A stretch of DNA of 64,000 bases from Scenedesmus sp. PABB004 (taxonomy: Eukaryota). The stretch covers positions 1,240,001-1,304,000 of the forward strand of contig CM026547.1 of the NCBI GenBank assembly GCA_014905635.1. The letters run 5' to 3'. A program made the position numbers and the translations under genes. The first letter of the stretch is position 1; each line of letters starts with the position of its first letter. Below, piece after piece: positions 22,685-32,845 of the stretch. Below the pieces are notes generated by a model. It saw nothing but the letters and a program-made list of their open reading frames with translations. It was not told where the DNA came from and ran no database searches.

Positions 22685-25600
22685 ATGAAGTTTGGCAAGC
22701 GCCTCGCCGCCGAGGCGGCGCGCTGTTGGCCCGAGGCGTGCCTGGACTACAAGTCCATCAAGCGCGCGCTGAAGAATGACCTCGCCGCCGGCGGTGCGCG
22801 GCGGCGGCGGCGCGCGCCGCGCGCGCAGCGCAGCGCCCCGAGCTGCGCCGGCAGGCAGCCGACCTGCGCCCGCCCGCCCCCGCCGCGCCGCCGCGCCGCG
22901 CCGCGCCGCGCCGCAGACCCCGCGGCGCGCAGCTTCCTGGCGCAGCTCGTCAAGGAGCTCGCCAAGGTCTCGCGCTTCTATGTGGAGAAGGCAGAGGCCC
23001 TCGAGGTGCGCCTGCGCCGCGGCCGCCAGCGCGCAGCAGCGCGCGCCTGCGGCCAGCGCGCGCAGCACGCGCGCCGCGCCGGGGCCGCGCGCCCACACGC
23101 CCGCGCCGCGCCCGCCCCGCAGGCCGCGCTGGGTGAGCTCGCGGCGGCGGCGCCGCCGAGCGCCGAGGCGCTGGACGGCCTGCGCGCCCAGATCCGCGAG
23201 CTCATCAAGTTTGTCGCGCTGAACTACCTCGGCGTGGTCAAGGCGATCAAGAAGCGCAACCGCCACGCGCGCGTCGCGTTTGGCGACGCCGCCGCGCCGC
23301 ACGGCCTGCACGCGATGGACCTGCTGCGCAGCGAGGTGTTCTTCACCTCGCCCCGCCTCGCCGCGCTGTCGACGCGCGCGGAGCTGATGGCCGCGGGCGC
23401 GCCCGGCGCGGCCGGCGCGCCGGCGGCGGCGGCGAGCGCCGCGGCGGCCGCCGCGGCTGCGGGCGGCGTCGAGGCGGAGGACTACCTCTGCCCCATCTGC
23501 CTCGACGTGCTGCGCAGCCCCGTGGTGCTCACGTGCGCGCATCGCTTCTGCTGGGGCTGCCTCGTCGCGCACTGCGCGGCCATCACCGGCCCAGCGCGAG
23601 CGGCGCGCCCGCGGCGCCGGGCGGCGCGGCGCCGCCGCAGCAGGGCGGCGGCGCCGCCTGCTGTGGCGGCGGCGCGGCCTGCGAGCACGGCCAGCAGCAG
23701 CAAGCGGCGGAGCAGCAGCGCGCGGCTGACGAGCTGGACGGCGCGGGCGCCAGCCGCAGCAGCAGCACCAGCAGCAGCAGCGGCAAGGAGGGCCTCGTGG
23801 TGCTGGAGAAGCTCGTGGCGGCCGATGCGAGCGGCAGCGCTGGAGGCAGCGCGGGCGCGTGCGACGTGTACAACTGCCCCGTGTGCAGGCAGCCGCAGGT
23901 GCTGAGCATCGACAACATGGCGGTGGACCCCCAGCTGTCGCGCTTTGTGGACGAGCTGCGCCTGCGGCTCAAGCGCGGCGCGGACGGCCCCGGCAGCGCG
24001 GGCAGCGCGAGCAGCCGCAGCACGCTCAGCAGCGCGCCGCCCAGCCCGCGGTGCGCGCCCGGCAGCCGCACGAGCAGCGTCGCGAGCGTGGCGACGGAGG
24101 AGCCGGAGGAGGCCTTCCTGCTGCCCCGCCAGGCGCCGTGCCACGCTGGCCGGCTGACGGTGCTTCTCGACCTCGACGGCACGCTCGTGTCGTCCTACAC
24201 GCCCCGCCGCGCGCCCAAGCTGCCGTCCATGCGCACGCACCTCGTCGGCGTCGGGTCGGAGCTCAACCCCGGCGGCGTGTTCGTCGTCGAGCGCCCCGGG
24301 CTGGGCCAGTTCCTCGCGCAGCTCGCGCAGGTCGCCGAGGTCGTGGTCTTCACCGCCGGTGCGCGCGCCGCGCACGTCCCCGCGCCGCGCGCGCTGCGCG
24401 GCCGCGCGCCGCGCCCGCGTGCCGCGCTGCCCCGCGCCCACGCCCCCTCCCCCCCTCCCCTCCCTCCCCCCGCGCGCGCGCAGGCCTGGAGGACTACGCG
24501 TCGCCGATCATCGACGCCATCGACCCCGCGGGCACCATCTCGGGCCGCCTCTACCGCGGCGCCTGCACGCGCACGCCGCACCACCAGTGCGTCAAGGACC
24601 TCGCGCTCGTCGGCCGCCCCCTCAGCCGGACCGTGCTCGTGGACGACACGCCCCTGGCCTTCCTGCACCAGCCCGCCAACGGCGTGCCGGTGCTGGGCTT
24701 CCGCGGCGACCCCGACGACCGGCTGCTGCTCGAGGCGGTGCTGCCACTCCTGCAGGTGCGCGGCGGGGCTTCGGCGGCGGGGCTTTGCGTGGCTTTGCGG
24801 GGCTTTGTTGCACCCGCGTGGCTCGTGCACGCGGCATCTCCGGGCGGGATGCCTCGCCTCGCGTGATGCCGATCGTGGTGCTCGCTCGCACACGCGCCCG
24901 CGCCCTGCACGCGCTCCGCGCGCGCACCGCCTGCGCGCGCGGCGGTCGGCCCGGCATGCCGCTGTCTTCTTACGTGACGCGCGCCCTGGCCGCGCCCGCG
25001 CTGGGCGGCGCGGCCGGGGCGGGGCGATGCCGCGCGGGGGCCGTCGCTGGCGCGCAGCGGGCGCGCGGGCCCCGCGCCCTCGCGCCACGGTCGGGGCCGC
25101 TGATCACGCCCGTGCGTGCCCGTCGCACTGGCGGGGCTGCGACGCGCCGCCGCCGACCCGCCGCTCACGCGGCCCGCCGCCCGCCGCCCGCGCAGAACCT
25201 GGCCTCCGCGCCCGACGTGCGCAGCGTGCTCGAGCGGCGCTTCGCCATGTGCGACTGGTTCACGCGCAACGGCTACCCGCCCGAGGTGTGGGCGCCGCGC
25301 GCCGCCGGCGCGGAGCCGCAGCAGCCGGAGGTCGCGGCCGCGGACGCGGTGGTCGTCGTCGACGACGCGCCCGCGCTGGCCAAGGCCGGCGGCACGGTGC
25401 TGGTCTGCGACTTTGACAAGACGCTCACGTCCTGGGACGCGGGGGAGCGACTCGTGTCGGAGCTCGCGCCGGAGCTCGTGCCCTGGCTCGCGTCGCTCGA
25501 GCAGCCCGCCAACTTTGTGCCCATCACCAACGAGGTCCTCGCCGAGGTCGCGCGCCGCGGCGTCGGCCGCGACGCGCTGCTGACGCGCCTGCGGGCGCTC

Positions 25601-26188
25601 GGCGGCGAGCTGCCGCCCGCGACGGGCAAGCTGCTCGGCTGGGCGGCCGCGCGGGGCCTGCCGGTCAAGGTGCTCAGCGACTGCAACGCCGTGTTCATCC
25701 GAAACATCCTCGCCGGCGCGGGCCTCGGCGGCCTGCTGCAGCGCGGCGACGTCGAGCTCATCACCAACGCTGCCTGCTTCGAGCGCCTGCCTGGCGCCGG
25801 CGGCGCCGTCGGCCTCGGCGCAGCGCCCGGCGCGCGCGGCGGCGGCGCGCCGCCGACGCACAAGCTCGTGATCGCGCCGCGCCACGCCGGCGCGGCGCAC
25901 GGCTGCCCGCGCTGCCCCGCCAACCTGTGCAAGGGGCGCGAGATGGCGCGCCTGGTCGGCGCAGGGTACGCCAAGGTGGTCTACGCCGGCGACGGCGCGA
26001 ACGACATCTGCCCCGCGCTCGCGCTCGGGCCGGGCGACGTCGTGCTCGCGCGCGCGGGCGACGCGCTCGCGCGCTACGTCGCCGCCGCGGCGGCCGACCC
26101 GTCGCTCGCGCAGCTGCGCGCGCGCGTGTGCATGTGGTCGGACCACGAGCAGCTCGCGGCGCTCGCGATGCAGCACGCCGGCTGCTGA
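22685..26188 (+). CDS. Four-domain fusion: SPX - C3HC4 RING - FCP1/SCP (NIF) HAD phosphatase - PHOSPHO1/PECP-like HAD phosphatase
   Basis: SPX: MKFGK, LDYKSIKRALK, ELAKVSRFY, LNYLGVVKAIKK. RING: CPICLDVLRSPVVLTCAHRFCWGC...CPVCR. NIF: LLDLDGTLV, ERPGL, VFTAGLEDYASPIIDAIDP, RLYR, VKDL, VLVDD. PHOSPHO: VCDFDKTL, VLSDCNAVFI, HGCPRCPANLCKG, YAGDGANDICP. Introns 22794-22916, 23006-23122, 24359-24483 and 24756-25195; one apparent 1-nt frameshift at ~23590. Confidence 0.88.
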
Positions 26189-27326: not shown

Positions 27327-30300
27327 TCGATGCCCGCGCGAGCTGCTCCCGCTGCAGGGACAGGAAGGGGTTGGGCGGCTCGTCGTCATCCTCGCCGCCA
27401 CCGCCGCCGCCGCCGCTGCCGTCAAACTCCTCCCACGGCGCGCCGCCGCCGTCGCGCAGCTCCAGCGGCTCGAGCGAGGGCGGCGCCGGCGCGCCGCTGC
27501 GGGGCTGCCAGGCCGCGGCGGCGCCGCCGTCGCGCGGCTCCGGCTGCTGCTCAGGCGCCTCCGTCATCTGCACGCTCTGCACCGTCTGCAGCGCCGGCGC
27601 AGAGGGAGCGCCGCCGTCGGCCGGGCCCGGCCGCGGGGCCGGGGCGGGTGCGAGCTGCTGCGGCAGCGCCAGCGACGCCGGCGGGCCCATGCAGTCGCCG
27701 GGGCCGCTGCACGCGGGCGCCTGCAGCGAGGCGCTGAAGGCGAGGCCGCCGTAGCGCGTCGCGCTCACGCCAGACGACGCGGGCGAGGCGCCCAGGAAGC
27801 CGGTGGAGACCTGCCAGCCGCCCGTGCCGCCGCCGGCGCCGGCGCCGCCGCCGCCGTGCTCGAGCTCCTCCCGCTGCAGCTGCGCGAGCGCCGCCGCGCG
27901 CGCCGCGCCGTGCCGGCTCGCCTGCGGCGCGCTCACGCTGCGGCCCAGGAAGCGGCGCGCCGCCTCGGCCGCGCTCACGACGGGCGGCGGCTGCATGCTG
28001 CCCGCGGCCGGCAGCCCGCCGCCGCGGCCGGCGACGGGCGGCTCGCCGCCGCTCGCGCCGCTCGCGGCGGCGCCGCCAAACTGGAAGCCCTCCATGATGG
28101 AGCTCGCCGGCCCCAGCAGCGAGCTGCCCTGCCCGCCGAGCAGCGAGCGCTGCGCAAGCATGGACGAGCCCGCGGGGCCCAGCACCGAGCCCTGGCCGCA
28201 CAGCCCGCCCGACGCCTGCAGGCCGAGGCTGGCGCCCAGGTGCAGCTCCGAGCCGCGGCCGGTGCCTGTGCTGCCGGAGAAGCTGTGCTGCTTGAGGTAC
28301 GCGCGGCCGCCCGCCGGGGGCGCCAGCGCGGCGCCGCCGTCGGCGGGGCCGGCCGGGTAGGTGCCCCAGCTGCTCAGGCCGGCGGCGGCGGGCTGCTGCT
28401 GCCAGGGCTGGTCAGACGCGCTCCAGCGCAGCGGCTCCAGCTGGCCGCCGCCCAGCTGCGACCAGGGGCCCTCCTGCTGCGACACGACCGCGCGGCCCGC
28501 CGCCGACGCGGACGCCGGCGACAGCACCACGCCGCCGCCGCCGCCGCCGGAGGCCCGCCGCGCGGCCGCGGCGAGGGAGATGTTGAGCCGCTTGCTGCGC
28601 GCCTTGGACGCGGCGCCCTCGTGCCCCGCGACCGCGCCGGAGCGGTCCGACGCGACGCGCAGCGAGCCGAAGCCGTCCTTGAGGCTGCCGCACGTGGCCT
28701 GGCTGCTCGTGGGGCCGGCCGCGGCGGCCGCCGCCGCGGCGCGGGCGCTGCCGCCGCTGCCGCGGCGGCCGCCGCCGCCGCCGCTGCCGCTCGAGTGGTC
28801 GGGGTCAAAGTCCTCGTCGCTGCCGTCGTCCTCGTCGTCGTCGTCCTCGTCGGACGAGTTGCGGCCGCGCTTCTTCTTGCGCGCCGCCGCGCCGCGGCGG
28901 CGCCGCGCGGCCGCGCCCGCGCCCGACGCGAGCGCGCGCCGGTTGCTGCTGCCGTTGCGGCTGAGCTGCCGCCCGGCGCGCCGCGCGCGCCGCCGCCGGG
29001 CGCGGGCCGGCCGTCGGTCTCGCCCTCGCCCGGCGCGAGCGCGCCGCCGCCGGCCTTGCCGCACGGCGGCGGCGGGCTGTCGGCGCCGCCGCCGCCCTCG
29101 CGCAGGCTGCCGACGATGACCTTGACGCAGCCCTCGTCCGGCAGCGCGCCCGCCCACATGGGCTCGGGCTCGCCGCCGCCGCGGCTCACCGCGACCGCGA
29201 GCGTCGTGCGGCAGCCGCCGCGGCGCTCAAACGTGATCGCGTCGCCGATCGCGAGGCGCTTGGCCTTGATGAACTCGCTCCACCCGCACGTGAGCCGCAG
29301 GTGGCGCTGCCCCGCGCACAGCACGCCCTCGTACGTGACCGGCCACACCGCGCCCTGCCCGTCCACGAGCTTCACCTGGACCTTGAACAGCATCTCGTAG
29401 CTGCGCGGCCCGCCGCCGCCGCGGCCGCCCGACGCGGACGCGCCGCCGGCCGCCGGCTTGGCCCTGCCGCCGCCGCGCGGCGCGTAGTCTGCGTCGTCGC
29501 CGGCGCCGCCGCCCGCCGCCGGCGGCGCCGCGCCCGTGCCGCCGCCGCCGTCGCCGCCGGGCGCGGCGTCGGCGGCGTGCGTGGCGGCCGACGCCGACGG
29601 CGCGCCGCGCGCGCCCGCGCGCTGGCTCGACGTGCGCACGCTGCCCTCCATGCGCGGCAGCAGGTGGTCAGACATGTACTGCGTGACGTTGAGGCGCTTG
29701 AGGTAGGTCTTGCAGCTGATCGCGCGCGTATGGCGCAGCGTCGCGCCCGCCGCGCCGGCGTGCGGCGCGGGCGCCGCGGCGGCGCGGCCGCCCGCGCGGC
29801 GGCCGCCCGCGCCTGCGCCTCCGCCGTCGTCGCCGCCGGCGCCGCGGGCGCCGCCGCCGTCGCCGTCCAGCGGCGCGGCGTCGTCGGCGGGCGGCAGCGG
29901 CAGCTCGCCGGTGACGGTGCGGCCGATCACGCTCGCGGACCGCTCGCCGGCGGGCGGGCCGGCCTTGGGCTCGGCGTTGCCGCCCGGCGCGTTTGCCGCC
30001 GCAGCCGCGGCAAACGCGCTGGCCGGCTCCTCGCCCGGCTCCGGCTTCGCCTGCAGCAGATTGCTCGGGTGCTGCGGCGCGACCGGCTGCGGCGGCGCCT
30101 CCGCCGCCGGCTCGTCGCCGCCCGGCGCGCCCGGCTCGCCGCCGCTGCCCGGCAGGGGCGAGGGCACGGGCGAGGCCAGCAGGGCGAGCAGGTCCAGCGA
30201 GGTCGTCGTGAAGAGCGCGGCGGGCTCGCCGCCGCCGGGCGCGGCGGCGGGCGCCGGCGGCTGCACGTGGGGCGCCTCGTCCGCGAGCGGGCCGGGCCGG

Positions 30301-30500
30301 GCCGCCGTCGCCGCGGCCGCCATGGACGACGAGGCGCCGGGTGCGGGGGGCGGCTCCGCGGCCGCTCCTAGTTTAGGGTGCGCCGGCTGCTCGCCGGGCT
30401 GGTCTGCCGAGCGCGGCGCGTCCAGCGAGCGCCGCGCCGCTGCTTGCTGCTGCGGCCCCGCTAGGCCGTCGTCGGAGCGCCGCGCGTCGCCGCCGAGCAT
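26881..30500 (-). CDS. B3 DNA-binding domain protein (putative transcription factor), mostly low-complexity; apparent frameshift at ~28975
   Basis: VKLVDGQGAVWPVTYEG...HLRLTCGWSEFIKAKRLAIGDAITFER is the B3 core (D-G--W...GW--F----L--GD---F). NLS-like RKKKRGR plus acidic DEDDDDEDD downstream in the adjacent frame. No clear introns; start codon uncertain. Confidence 0.75.
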
Positions 30501-31895
30501 GCTCCCGCGCGCGGGTGGCGGCCTGCGCGGCGCGCGCCGGCATCGTCCGCGTCCCGCCGGTCACGCCCTCCGGCTGCAGCACCAGCGCGCGGCAGCTCGG
30601 GGCTCCCTGCGCGGGCGGCGCGGCGCAGCGGCGGCGGCGGCAGCAGCGGCCGGCCGGTGAGGGGGCCGCGCCGGCGGGCTGGGGGCGCCCGCGGTCGCGC
30701 GCGCGGTGCGGGGGATGGAGGACCCCCCACAGAGCCTGGTGCGCCCTGCGACGGCCGCCACCGCGCGCCCAGGCGCCCGAAACCGCCCCATTATCCGACA
30801 GTCTGCGCGCCGGGCGCTCGCGCGCGCGCGGGGCCCGATCGAGCCCGGCACACCCTCCCAAACCGCTGGCAGCATCGCGCAGCGCGCAACGCCGGCGGTC
30901 CGGGGGCCAGGCGGGGCCTGGCGGGCGCACGGCGGGCGTGCATGCCGGCCGCGCCGCGCCGCGCCCCGGTGCGCGCGCACCCGCACCCTGGCGGGCCCGC
31001 TGTCGGCCTGATTGCGGCCCCGGGGTCTCACGGCACCGCCCGCGCGCCCGCCAGGGCCGGTCCCGGTCGCCGCGCGCCACCTTCGAGCGGCCCCCTTGGG
31101 CCGTGCCCAACCCGGCGCCGCGCGCTGGCCGCAGGCGCGGCGCGCCCGGTGGCTGCCACGGGGCCACCCGGATGCGGTTGCGTGTCCCCTGCCGCGCGGC
31201 GTGGCGGCCTCACCGCTCGCAGGTGGCGCGCAGCAGCTCCGCGAGGCGCGCGTCCGGCAGAACGGCGCGGCGCTGTCGCAGAGAGGTGAAGAGCCTTCAC
31301 GGAGGCTCAGGGCGATGCGGGCGGGGCGCGCATGCGGGCGATCGTGCTGTTCGCTGCTGCTGCCGGGCGCGGTGTGCCGGCGAGCGCGTGTGGGTGGGGC
31401 GGTGCCAGGCCGCAACAAGACTGCGCGCTGGAGCAGACGCCGGCGCGCCAGGCCGCGGGACGGCTGGCGGGAGCGCGGGTGGGTTCGCGTCACATGGGCC
31501 GGCACCGCGCTGGGCCGCGAACAGCGCGTGGGGGCGGTCCCCCACGGCCCAAATGTTCGGTGCATGGGGTCTCAGACCACGCCGCCAGCTCCCGCGCGCC
31601 GCGCGCCGCCGAGCGCCGCGCGCCGAGCGCTCATGCACGTCGCAGCGGCCGCCGCAGGCAGCACCTGCCTTGCGCACCCAGCCGTCGCAAGCCACGCAGG
31701 CCTGACGTCAGCCGGAGCACCGCGCCTGGGGGGGTCACCGGCGTCACCCGCACGGCCGCTGCTGCCGAGGGAGCCGGCCCAACGCTCGCCTCCGCCGCGC
31801 CTGCCTGAGGAGCCGGCCCAACGCCGTCAGTGGAGCGCACGTTGGGCCTTACAGGAGCGCCGTCAGTCGGTGGCGGCGGCGCGGAAGCGGCGCGG

Positions 31896-32845
31896 TCAGT
31901 GGTGGTAGGGCGCGCCCTTGAGGATGGTGTAGCCCCGGTACAGCTGCTCCGCGAGCACCACGTGCGCGACGCTGTGGTTGAGCACGAGCCGGCTCAGCCG
32001 GATGCTGTCGTCCGCGCGCGCCGACACGCCCGCGCCGTGGCCGTACGGCCCGCCCACCACGAAGCAGAGCGGCGTGCCGTCGTCGCCCGCGGCCGCGATG
32101 AGCCGCGCGACGTCTGCGCGGGCGGCGGCGGCGCGGGCGGCGGGGGCGGGCCGCTCACCGCTCACGCCAGCTCGGGGCCGCCCAGCGGCAGCGAGGCCTC
32201 GCAGGGGCCCGCGCGCACCTTCGCTGCTGACCTCGCGCCCCCGCTCGTCCAGCAGCACGACGCGCTCCCCGGGGGCGATGGCCTTGAGCACCTGCGGCGC
32301 GGCGCGGCGCGGCGCGGCGCGGCGCTCAGCCGGCCAGCCAGGCGGGGCGCGTACGCTCTAGTCTAGTCGCGCGCGCGACGCGCCCGCCGCGGGGCCGCCG
32401 CCCACTACCTTTTCAGCCTCGTCGTCCTTCTGCACCTGCGGCGACGACGCGCCGCGCGGGTTGGGCTTGATTGCCACCTCGCTCACGGCCGTGTACCTGC
32501 GGCGGCGCGCGGACGCGCGGCGCGGGGGCTCCCGGTGCTGCCGCGGGACCCACGCGGGCGCGGCAGCAGCCGCCGGCGGCCGCCGCGCCTGGCGAGCTTG
32601 TCGATCCACTCCGCGGCCATCGCCTGCGCGGCCTTGCTGTTGCCCTTGCTCACGCTGATGAGCTTGATGGGCATCGCACGCACGCTGCGCACCAGCTCCG
32701 CGCCGCCACCCGCCCGCGTGGCGGCGGCGGCGGCACGCGCGGCCGCGCCGCGTGCGCGCAGCGCGAGCCACGGCGCGGCCGCGGCTCGCCGGGCGGCGGA
32801 GCAGCCTGCGGTGGCCGCGCGCCCGCAGCCGCGCGCCAGCAGCAT
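31896..32845 (-). CDS. rlmH: RlmH-like SPOUT rRNA (pseudouridine-1915 N3) methyltransferase, organelle-targeted
   Basis: IKLISVSKG, VVLLDERGREVSSE, CFVVGGPYG, IRLSRLVLNH, VVLAEQLYRGYTILKGAPYHH*. Three introns, the first GC-AG (donor 32588). Arg/Ala-rich leader. Confidence 0.92.

Follow-up and report, generated by a model that had tools for sequence, protein, structure and literature searches.

A predicted green-algal protein that joins an SPX-RING module to two HAD-type phosphatase domains

In eukaryotes, SPX proteins act as the central receptors of phosphate status; the plant field distinguishes four classes of them. The locus analysed here raises the question of whether a green alga carries an SPX domain, a RING and two different phosphatase domains on one polypeptide, or whether adjacent genes, a frame break or a faulty gene model only make it appear so. 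The locus occupies positions 22685–26188 of the forward strand of a 64,000-nucleotide (nt) stretch of the Scenedesmus sp. PABB004 genome (contig CM026547.1), which we call the window and to whose numbering all coordinates refer. Three-frame translation and splice signals resolve 22685–26188 (+) into a five-exon protein-coding gene, the product of which, with the frame restored, is ~899 amino acids (aa) long and has the domain order SPX, C3HC4 RING, SCP/CTDSP-like NIF and PHOSPHO1/PF06888. An earlier reading made from the letters alone (the sequence-only reading) had proposed such a four-domain fusion; indeed, SPX, a split C3HC4 RING, a NIF-type HAD and a PF06888 HAD could all be assigned in the one gene. 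Very probably this is a single conserved four-domain gene, its domain order and parts of its linkers having been kept across the core green algae.

Gene model and domain assignments

The G + C content is ~79% throughout the window. The search with the last exon returned a deposited protein, 'PSR2 [Scenedesmus sp. PABB004]' (P0001, 878 aa), as a 100% identical match, and the model derived here is identical to P0001 in its first 203 and its last 675 residues, the sole difference being 21 RING residues that have no counterpart in P0001. Two protein sets underlie the counts given below: 69 aligned rows, made up of 68 database proteins of at least 750 aa and the window model with P0001 left out, and, for pattern matching, 69 database proteins of at least 750 aa, P0001 included. 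The gene has the following parts:

22685–22793 (+): exon 1, with the start codon and SPX helices 1–2 (MKFGKR..., DYKSIKRALK), from Pfam SPX on the exon alone
22794–22916 (+): intron 1, 123 nt, GTGCGC...CGCAG, phase 1; this splice reproduces P0001
22917–23005 (+): exon 2, SPX helix 3, aligning with the orthologues' ELxKVSxFY block
23006–23122 (+): intron 2, 117 nt, GTGCGC...CGCAG, phase 0
23123–24358 (+): exon 3, whole
23123–23390 (+): first part of exon 3, SPX helices 4–6, from the OsSPX1 alignment and the family profile against solved SPX domains
23240–23263 (+): basic cluster VKAIKKRNR in exon 3
23489–23560 (+): first six zinc ligands of the RING (CPIC...CAHRFCWGC), frame mod3=2; Pfam zf-C3HC4_4 on this N-terminal half in the exon translation, 1.2e-7
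23533–23594 (+): 62-nt 'intron' of the deposited model (GTGCGC...GCCCAG), which deletes CAHRFCWGCLVAHCAAITGPS; most likely no real intron
23588–23595 (+): frame break from mod3=2 to mod3=1, with the C-run 23590–23592 inside it
23596–23874 (+): low-complexity insert within the RING, variable among the aligned relatives and predicted to be disordered in the AlphaFold2 model of the orthologue P0005
23875–23886 (+): last zinc-ligand pair of the RING, CPVC, frame mod3=1; the CxxC column is filled in 69/69 rows
23887–24147 (+): post-RING helix (VDPQLSRFVDELRLRL) and variable linker, with a conserved LLPxQ motif at the end
24148–24358 (+): N-terminal part of the NIF/FCP1-homology phosphatase, its FTAG lying at the end of the exon; Pfam NIF positions 1–61, 7.6e-9
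24169–24183 (+): DLDGT of NIF
24359–24483 (+): intron 3, 125 nt, GTGCGC...CGCAG, phase 1, interrupting the NIF domain
24484–24755 (+): exon 4, middle part of NIF (VKDL, VDDTP); Pfam NIF positions 64–150, 2.9e-23
24756–25195 (+): intron 4, 440 nt, GTGCGC...CGCAG, phase 0, after ...LPLLQ
25196–26188 (+): exon 5, the last exon, whole
25196–25402 (+): first part of the last exon, with the conserved RRFxMxxWF motif and a variable linker after the NIF C-terminal helix
25196–25243 (+): NIF C-terminal helix (PDVRSVLERRF)
25403–26170 (+): PHOSPHO1-type HAD phosphatase (PF06888), including LSDCN and CPANLCKG; Pfam 1e-25, HAD 2.3e-8
25409–25423 (+): DFDKT of the PHOSPHO domain
25988–26005 (+): GDGAND of the PHOSPHO domain
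26186–26188 (+): stop codon, TGA

The sequence-only reading had held that the domain junctions fall inside exons and that both sets of HAD motifs and the basic residues of the SPX domain are intact. The gene model agrees on each junction: SPX passes into RING within exon 3, the RING CPVC reads in one frame to the NIF DLDGT, and the NIF C-terminal helix lies together with DFDKT and GDGAND on the last exon. Translation and motif alignment likewise confirm that the motifs of both HAD domains and the basic SPX residues are preserved.

On P0001, Pfam SPX (PF03105) scores 23.5 bits against a cut-off of 27.8. Relatives fall on both sides of this cut-off, P0005 (30.0) and P0010 (27.9) above it and P0047 and P0068 (24.5 each) below it, and exon 1 alone matches Pfam SPX positions 1–30 with an E-value of 0.0027. 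A profile of 28 orthologues matched solved SPX domains over profile positions 1 to ~160, with E-values from 4.2e-12 to 1.1e-6; these included 5ijj (4.2e-12; called only 'SPX domain' in the structure table, and which we take to be that of Gde1), rice OsSPX1 (7e40; 2.4e-11), Vtc4 (9.7e-11) and XPR1 (3.6e-10). As far as sequence comparison can establish it, the SPX identity is secured at the family level by this orthologue profile. Residues M1, K2, F3, R6, Y22, K26, K103, K106 and K107 are invariant among the 28 orthologues, and the helix-4 K-x-x-K-K motif is found in 67/69 aligned rows, the other two rows being gapped there. When OsSPX1 (7e40) was aligned pairwise with the orthologue, its 'ALNYTGLVKILKKYDKR' stood opposite 'ALNYLAVVKAIKKRNRQ' and its KILKKYDK opposite KAIKKRNR, the final Lys of the helix-4 motif being Arg here. 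The corresponding basic residues in the window are those of MKFGK, YKSIK and KAIKKRNR.

Pfam NIF (PF03031) matches P0001 at 4.3e-41 and covers 160/160 profile positions. The motifs of this domain in the window (DLDGT, FTAG, VKDL and VDDTP) are all canonical, and across the aligned rows D-x-D-G-[TS]-L and [FY]TAG are each present in 69/69 and the DD of motif IV in 68/69. Sequence, profile and Foldseek searches all gave SCP1/2/3 as the nearest solved structures. The single sequence matched SCP-type structures at 1.3e-24 and the family profile matched SCP1/2/3 at ~1e-33; in Foldseek the template modelling (TM) scores were 0.84–0.89 when normalised to the target (SCP1, 0.88), at 32–33% identity. 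Next after these small C-terminal domain (CTD) phosphatases came CTDNEP1, matched by the family profile at 6.3e-29, and TIM50 was also among the structure matches. Like human SCP1/2/3 (CTDSP1, CTDSP2, CTDSPL) and CTDNEP1/Dullard, the domain has the DxDxT, T, K and DD motifs. By contrast, SCP1/2/3 and CTDNEP1 are stand-alone or membrane-anchored, whereas NIF here is flanked by a RING on one side and another HAD domain on the other. Its likeness to these enzymes is one of sequence and fold and does not imply that it acts on lipin or on the CTD of RNA polymerase II.

The C-terminal domain belongs to PF06888 ('Put_Phosphatase'), which the last exon matches at 1e-25, scoring 91 bits where the cut-off is 27, and P0001 at 2.3e-24. 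The last exon also has a Pfam HAD match (2.3e-8). DFDKT, LSDCN, CPANLCKG and GDGAND in the window provide HAD motifs I–IV and the CxxCPxNxCKG element. Foldseek placed this domain with the capped HADs MtnX, phosphoserine phosphatase (PSP) and cytosolic 5'-nucleotidase III (cN-III). A search of representative proteins with the last exon produced 985 matches at E ≤0.001, and the best 150 of the 985 were family members, fragments and stand-alone proteins of ~240–290 aa at 33–38% identity. The domain thus resembles PHOSPHO1/PHOSPHO2 and plant PS2/PPsPase1/PECP1, which share PF06888 with DFDKT, LSDCN, CPxNLCKG and GDGAND and the capped HAD fold. It differs from the stand-alone PF06888 proteins in being fused, in carrying a variable insert and in being catalytically degenerate in some lineages. 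Members of PF06888 hydrolyse phosphocholine, phosphoethanolamine, pyrophosphate (PPi) or pyridoxal phosphate (PLP), and the plant ones, induced by starvation for inorganic phosphate (Pi), include some of the most strongly Pi-starvation-induced plant enzymes.

An AlphaFold2 model of P0005, calculated with the 28-orthologue alignment, shows four folded domains on disordered linkers, with a mean predicted local distance difference test (pLDDT) score of 79.6 and 490 residues at pLDDT ≥90. The low-confidence segments are residues 206–286 (the RING insert, pLDDT <50), 329–342, 559–600 and 737–765 (the variable insert of the PHOSPHO domain, pLDDT <50).

The frame break within the RING

As assembled, the RING of the window is divided between two frames, its first six ligands lying in mod3=2 (frame 2) and its last two in mod3=1 (frame 1). 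In the database proteins both halves are nearly universal: all 69 have the last Cys pair, and 68/69 have the six-ligand pattern, which only the deposited model P0001 lacks. The assembled frame ends at a TGA at 23903 after 326 aa. The sequence-only reading had pointed to a frameshift at ~23590 as the place where the fusion might fail; the break is present in the assembly, with the 326-aa truncation as assembled, and looks like a homopolymer error. The G + C content at third codon positions (GC3) is 0.93–1.00 in frame 2 up to ~23550 and 0.90–1.00 in frame 1 from ~23610, and the switch at 23550–23610 occurs without an intron-like dip. At the break itself, frame 2 of the window reads ...CAAITGP and frame 1 reads PSAS..., and P0003, P0064 (Scenedesmus sp. 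NREL 46B-D3) and P0080 read ...CAS[IV]TGPS... at this site. One C added to the run 23590–23592 yields ...ITGPSAS... and the 899-aa protein. Because these three close relatives read TGPS there, one missing C is the simplest cause, and the break is probably a one-base homopolymer error of the assembly.

A genuine frameshift would instead limit the product to 326 aa, an SPX protein whose RING is crippled, and the phosphatase part would be untranslated or decaying, as in a young pseudogene or a strain-specific allele. We consider this quite unlikely. The change of frame at ~23590 and the TGA that follows it are in the assembly, and the depositors' pipeline had to invent an intron to hold the frame; but GC3 in the new frame 3' of the break stays at 0.90–1.00, all NIF and PHOSPHO motifs are canonical despite the break, and no further lesion is found across ~2.2 kb of coding sequence 3' of it. 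Moreover, the break falls within a C-run, and the two frames join as TGPS, as in the three relatives.

We also listed the GT/GC...AG pairs at 23545–23875 that restore the frame without a stop. None of the 469 candidates resembles the GTGCGC...CGCAG introns of this gene, except the deposited 62-nt one (23533–23594), the splicing of which gives the 878-aa protein without a functional RING. Removal of these 62 nt does restore the frame, and their boundaries (GTGCGC...CCCAG) resemble those of the four real introns (GTGCGC...CGCAG). Nevertheless, the 62 nt encode CAHRFCWGCLVAHCAAITGP, which matches the conserved orthologue block VVLTCAHRFCWGCLVAH, and the RING core that would be removed includes the orthologue-conserved CAHRFCWGCLVAH block; the stretch has a coding-type frame-2 GC3 of 0.93–0.97, its GTGCGC 'donor' belongs to the codons of Thr-Cys-Ala (T-C-A), and it is half as long as the shortest real intron. 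We therefore rejected this intron, which would delete conserved RING residues, and regard the deposited model as very unlikely to be correct. Because the deposited intron removes the RING core, the precomputed Pfam record of P0001 shows neither RING nor SPX. The absence of the RING core from the deposited model is flagged here as an annotation error.

Conservation of the four-domain order in green algae

Stop-free runs are common in the GC-rich window: over six frames their median is 61 codons and their maximum 1674, and 52% of the residues lie in runs of at least 250 codons. In this genome, ORF (open reading frame) length therefore says almost nothing about coding, and GC3 >0.9 is a much better marker of the coding frame. 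For the same reason the open frame between the domains is, taken alone, weak evidence, and it is the relatives that speak against a merge artefact.

A search with full-length P0005 returned 92 proteins. By a hand count of the precomputed Pfam column, 63/92 have RING, NIF and PF06888, and 20 of those 63 also have PF03105; this is the architecture check across green algae that the sequence-only reading had suggested, and the architecture is there. Among the long (≥579 aa) relatives found with the last exon, 26/26 have PF03031 and PF06888 on record and 19/26 a RING family. Four Trebouxia proteins (P0008, P0009, P0013 and P0014) have no recorded RING, yet all eight motif patterns match them. Pfam under-calls SPX and RING in this green-algal family.

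The named members come from the following groups:

Chlorophyceae: Chlamydomonas incerta, C. schloesseri, C. eustigma, C. sp. UWO 241, Edaphochlamys, Gonium, Volvox, Astrephomene, Dunaliella, Haematococcus, Sanguina, Raphidocelis, Monoraphidium, Tetradesmus and Scenedesmus
Trebouxiophyceae: Trebouxia, Elliptochloris, Apatococcus, Myrmecia, Symbiochloris, Micractinium, Chlorella and Coccomyxa
Other: Ulva, Tetraselmis and a pedinophyte

Two relatives are transcript-derived, P0047 (MMETSP source) and P0068 (a Trinity ORF marked complete), and two others lie on contigs with no room for introns, P0005 (877 aa) on 2955 nt and P0018 (912 aa) on 3030 nt. Therefore, one mRNA encodes the whole chain in these relatives. 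The junctions are conserved as well, with LLPPQ...G.LTV.LDLDGTL before NIF and DVR..L.RRF.M..WF after it. Taken together, the comparisons indicate that the predicted fusion is genuine and ancient within the core green algae.

The competing explanation, in which NLA-like, SCP-like and PHOSPHO1-like neighbours have been read as one gene owing to the rarity of stops, is extremely improbable. It could draw on the abundance of stop-free runs and on database models that hold only part of the chain, SPX-RING-NIF in P0064, P0067, P0072, P0077, P0080 and P0081 and NIF-PHOSPHO in P0060, P0075 and P0079. These partial models are visibly truncated, however: they end in mid-NIF, start inside NIF or continue past LPLLQ into an intron. 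Dozens of species and the transcript-derived proteins show the complete order, the junction regions are themselves conserved, and the coding frame runs without a stop between RING and NIF and between NIF and PHOSPHO. The statement of the sequence-only reading that the fusion is no gene-merge artefact is thus upheld by the recurrence of the architecture and the conservation of its linkers.

'SPX-RING-NIF only' and 'NIF-PHOSPHO only' were considered as sub-architectures and rejected, the proteins in question being truncated gene models. In P0067 (Monoraphidium neglectum) and P0072 (Haematococcus lacustris) the model enters an intron directly after ...LPLLQ; because both share this site with the window, the position of intron 4 (24755|24756) seems to be conserved across Chlorophyceae. 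In a separate case, P0002 (Tetradesmus obliquus, 702 aa), the NIF lead-in follows directly on SPX in the model, and the whole RING region is absent. Since other Scenedesmaceae-like relatives keep the RING, the model has probably skipped an exon, the loss being only apparent.

Proposed function and relation to known SPX proteins

The N-terminal SPX followed by a C3HC4 RING is the arrangement of plant NLA/BAH1, and NLA presumably also shares the conserved helix that follows the last Cys pair. Plant NLA is ~330 aa long and ends after the RING; unlike it, the green-algal protein extends ~550 aa further with two phosphatase domains. An N-terminal SPX joined to a phosphate-metabolising catalytic domain is likewise found in the yeast/fungal Vtc4 polyphosphate polymerase and Gde1 glycerophosphodiesterase, but the catalytic domains of these fusions are unrelated to those here and neither protein combines a ubiquitin ligase with phosphatases.

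The explanation that we favour overall, and consider reasonably likely, is that one four-domain gene encodes an NLA-like ligase, gated by inositol pyrophosphates (InsP) and equipped with two phosphatases, that acts in Pi homeostasis. Taken by itself, a role in Pi homeostasis as an SPX-gated ligase has, by analogy, a slightly better than even chance of being right. By analogy with solved and studied SPX proteins, the conserved basic residues of the SPX domain would form a binding site for inositol pyrophosphates that is occupied in Pi-replete cells, and the InsP-bound SPX would then govern the NLA-like ubiquitin ligase. By analogy with plant NLA, the targets of the ligase when Pi is plentiful would probably be Pi transporters or other Pi-homeostasis proteins; plant NLA ubiquitinates PHT1 Pi transporters, according to the available excerpt of PMC11528361. 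The NIF domain would most likely strip phospho-Ser/Thr marks from the ligase's targets or from a partner, a phospho-Ser/Thr protein phosphatase being proposed because the domain is SCP-like and its catalytic residues are universally kept. The C-terminal domain would most likely hydrolyse a small phospho-metabolite such as phosphocholine, phosphoethanolamine, PPi or PLP. This specific division of labour among the domains is tentative, and somewhat unlikely to hold in all its parts.

The last domain is also the one in which the catalytic motifs vary. PHOSPHO D-x-D is present in 64/69 rows, the window included, and the GDGxND-type motif IV in 61/69. A PHOSPHO catalytic motif is degenerate or missing in 8/69 full-length rows: the nucleophile Asp and/or motif IV are lost in seven, P0036 (C. 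eustigma), P0039 (C. sp. UWO 241), P0040, P0046, P0062, P0063 and P0068, and the eighth, P0051, is gapped at motif IV. In these relatives the domain itself is retained and NIF and RING are intact. Therefore, Pi release by the domain appears to be dispensable in some lineages. The pattern suggests a repeated conversion of the PHOSPHO domain to a pseudo-enzyme, and because the domain is kept where its catalytic residues are lost, it argues that the domain may have a non-catalytic role as well.

These losses bear on a different explanation, namely that the protein is essentially an E3 ligase in which at least one of the HAD domains works as a module for binding substrates or ligands. Retention of the PHOSPHO domain in the rows with a lost or gapped motif would fit it, and the NIF family has non-catalytic members, TIM50 being among the matches. 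Against it stand the near-universal D-x-D (69/69) and motif IV DD (68/69) of NIF and the 64/69 rows with an intact PHOSPHO D-x-D, the pattern of active enzymes under selection. We think this explanation unlikely and retain that of a ligase coupled to two phosphatases.

Several results weigh against that explanation as a whole. In addition to the early TGA of the assembled frame, the sub-threshold SPX score of P0001 and the degenerate PHOSPHO motifs, the predicted TM score (pTM) of the P0005 model is 0.42, which gives no support for fixed interdomain contacts; the structure prediction that the sequence-only reading had proposed for SPX–catalytic domain contacts thus shows no confident mutual packing. 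The literature search found no biochemical or genetic data for any family member. A search for short SPX-RING relatives gave 98 matches, mostly unnamed fragments, with no named plant NLA among them. Finally, the accessible portion of a preprint (10.1101/2020.09.16.300814) places NLA homologues in streptophytes only. The corresponding portion of a 2026 review, on the other hand, gives a protein of Volvox carteri the basal position in the SPX-RING subfamily, and the four-domain family, hidden under phosphatase labels, may explain this disagreement over chlorophyte NLA-type SPX-RING proteins.

The full-text literature search returned no paper describing an SPX + RING + NIF + PF06888 architecture. 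The excerpt available of a 2021 survey (PMC8717665) lists many algal SPX fusions, this one not among them, and the excerpts of PMC11528361, PMC8997716 and PMC6973038 contain nothing on it. The sequence-only reading had not known the architecture among described SPX classes; its suspicion of novelty stands insofar as we found no published description and fails insofar as the architecture is already in the public protein sets of dozens of green algae, where members are named 'CTD small phosphatase' or 'FCP1 homology domain-containing protein'. The protein is a variant of the SPX-RING class that has gone unremarked in databases, and no new kind of system. Core green algae thus have an SPX-RING within a protein of ~800–1000 aa labelled 'CTD small phosphatase'.

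A bolder version, argued from analogy and in our view doubtful, is that the protein is the chlorophyte counterpart of NLA built as a four-in-one machine. InsP binding to SPX would switch a ligase, a protein phosphatase and a metabolite phosphatase in one chain; the protein phosphatase would prepare or protect the targets, and the metabolite phosphatase would either recover Pi from PPi or phospholipid head groups or destroy the signal itself. If true, the gene would be a 'Rosetta stone' fusion, implying a shared pathway in land plants for NLA, small phosphatases of the SCP type and phosphatases of the PS2/PECP1 type, which are encoded there by separate genes. The tie between a ubiquitin ligase and two types of phosphatase provides a pathway-wiring hypothesis that is testable in Chlamydomonas and, by extension, in crops. 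In the available part of a 2023 study (PMC10413257), Phospho1 (Cre02.g114500) and ZF3 (Cre16.g681100, a RING protein) are PSR1-dependent, P-starvation-induced Chlamydomonas genes; neither the supplement of that study nor the full-text literature yielded a link from Cre02.g114500 or Cre16.g681100 to the green-algal family.

Two further features were noted on the opposite strand of the window. A long open frame at 28377–30560 (−) contains a B3 DNA-binding domain (PF02362, 5.3e-10) and looks like a neighbouring gene unrelated to the fusion. An open frame at 31899–32357 (−), probably an exon of an RlmH-like gene, matches a SPOUT methyltransferase over the latter's C-terminal half (PF02590, 5.5e-26).

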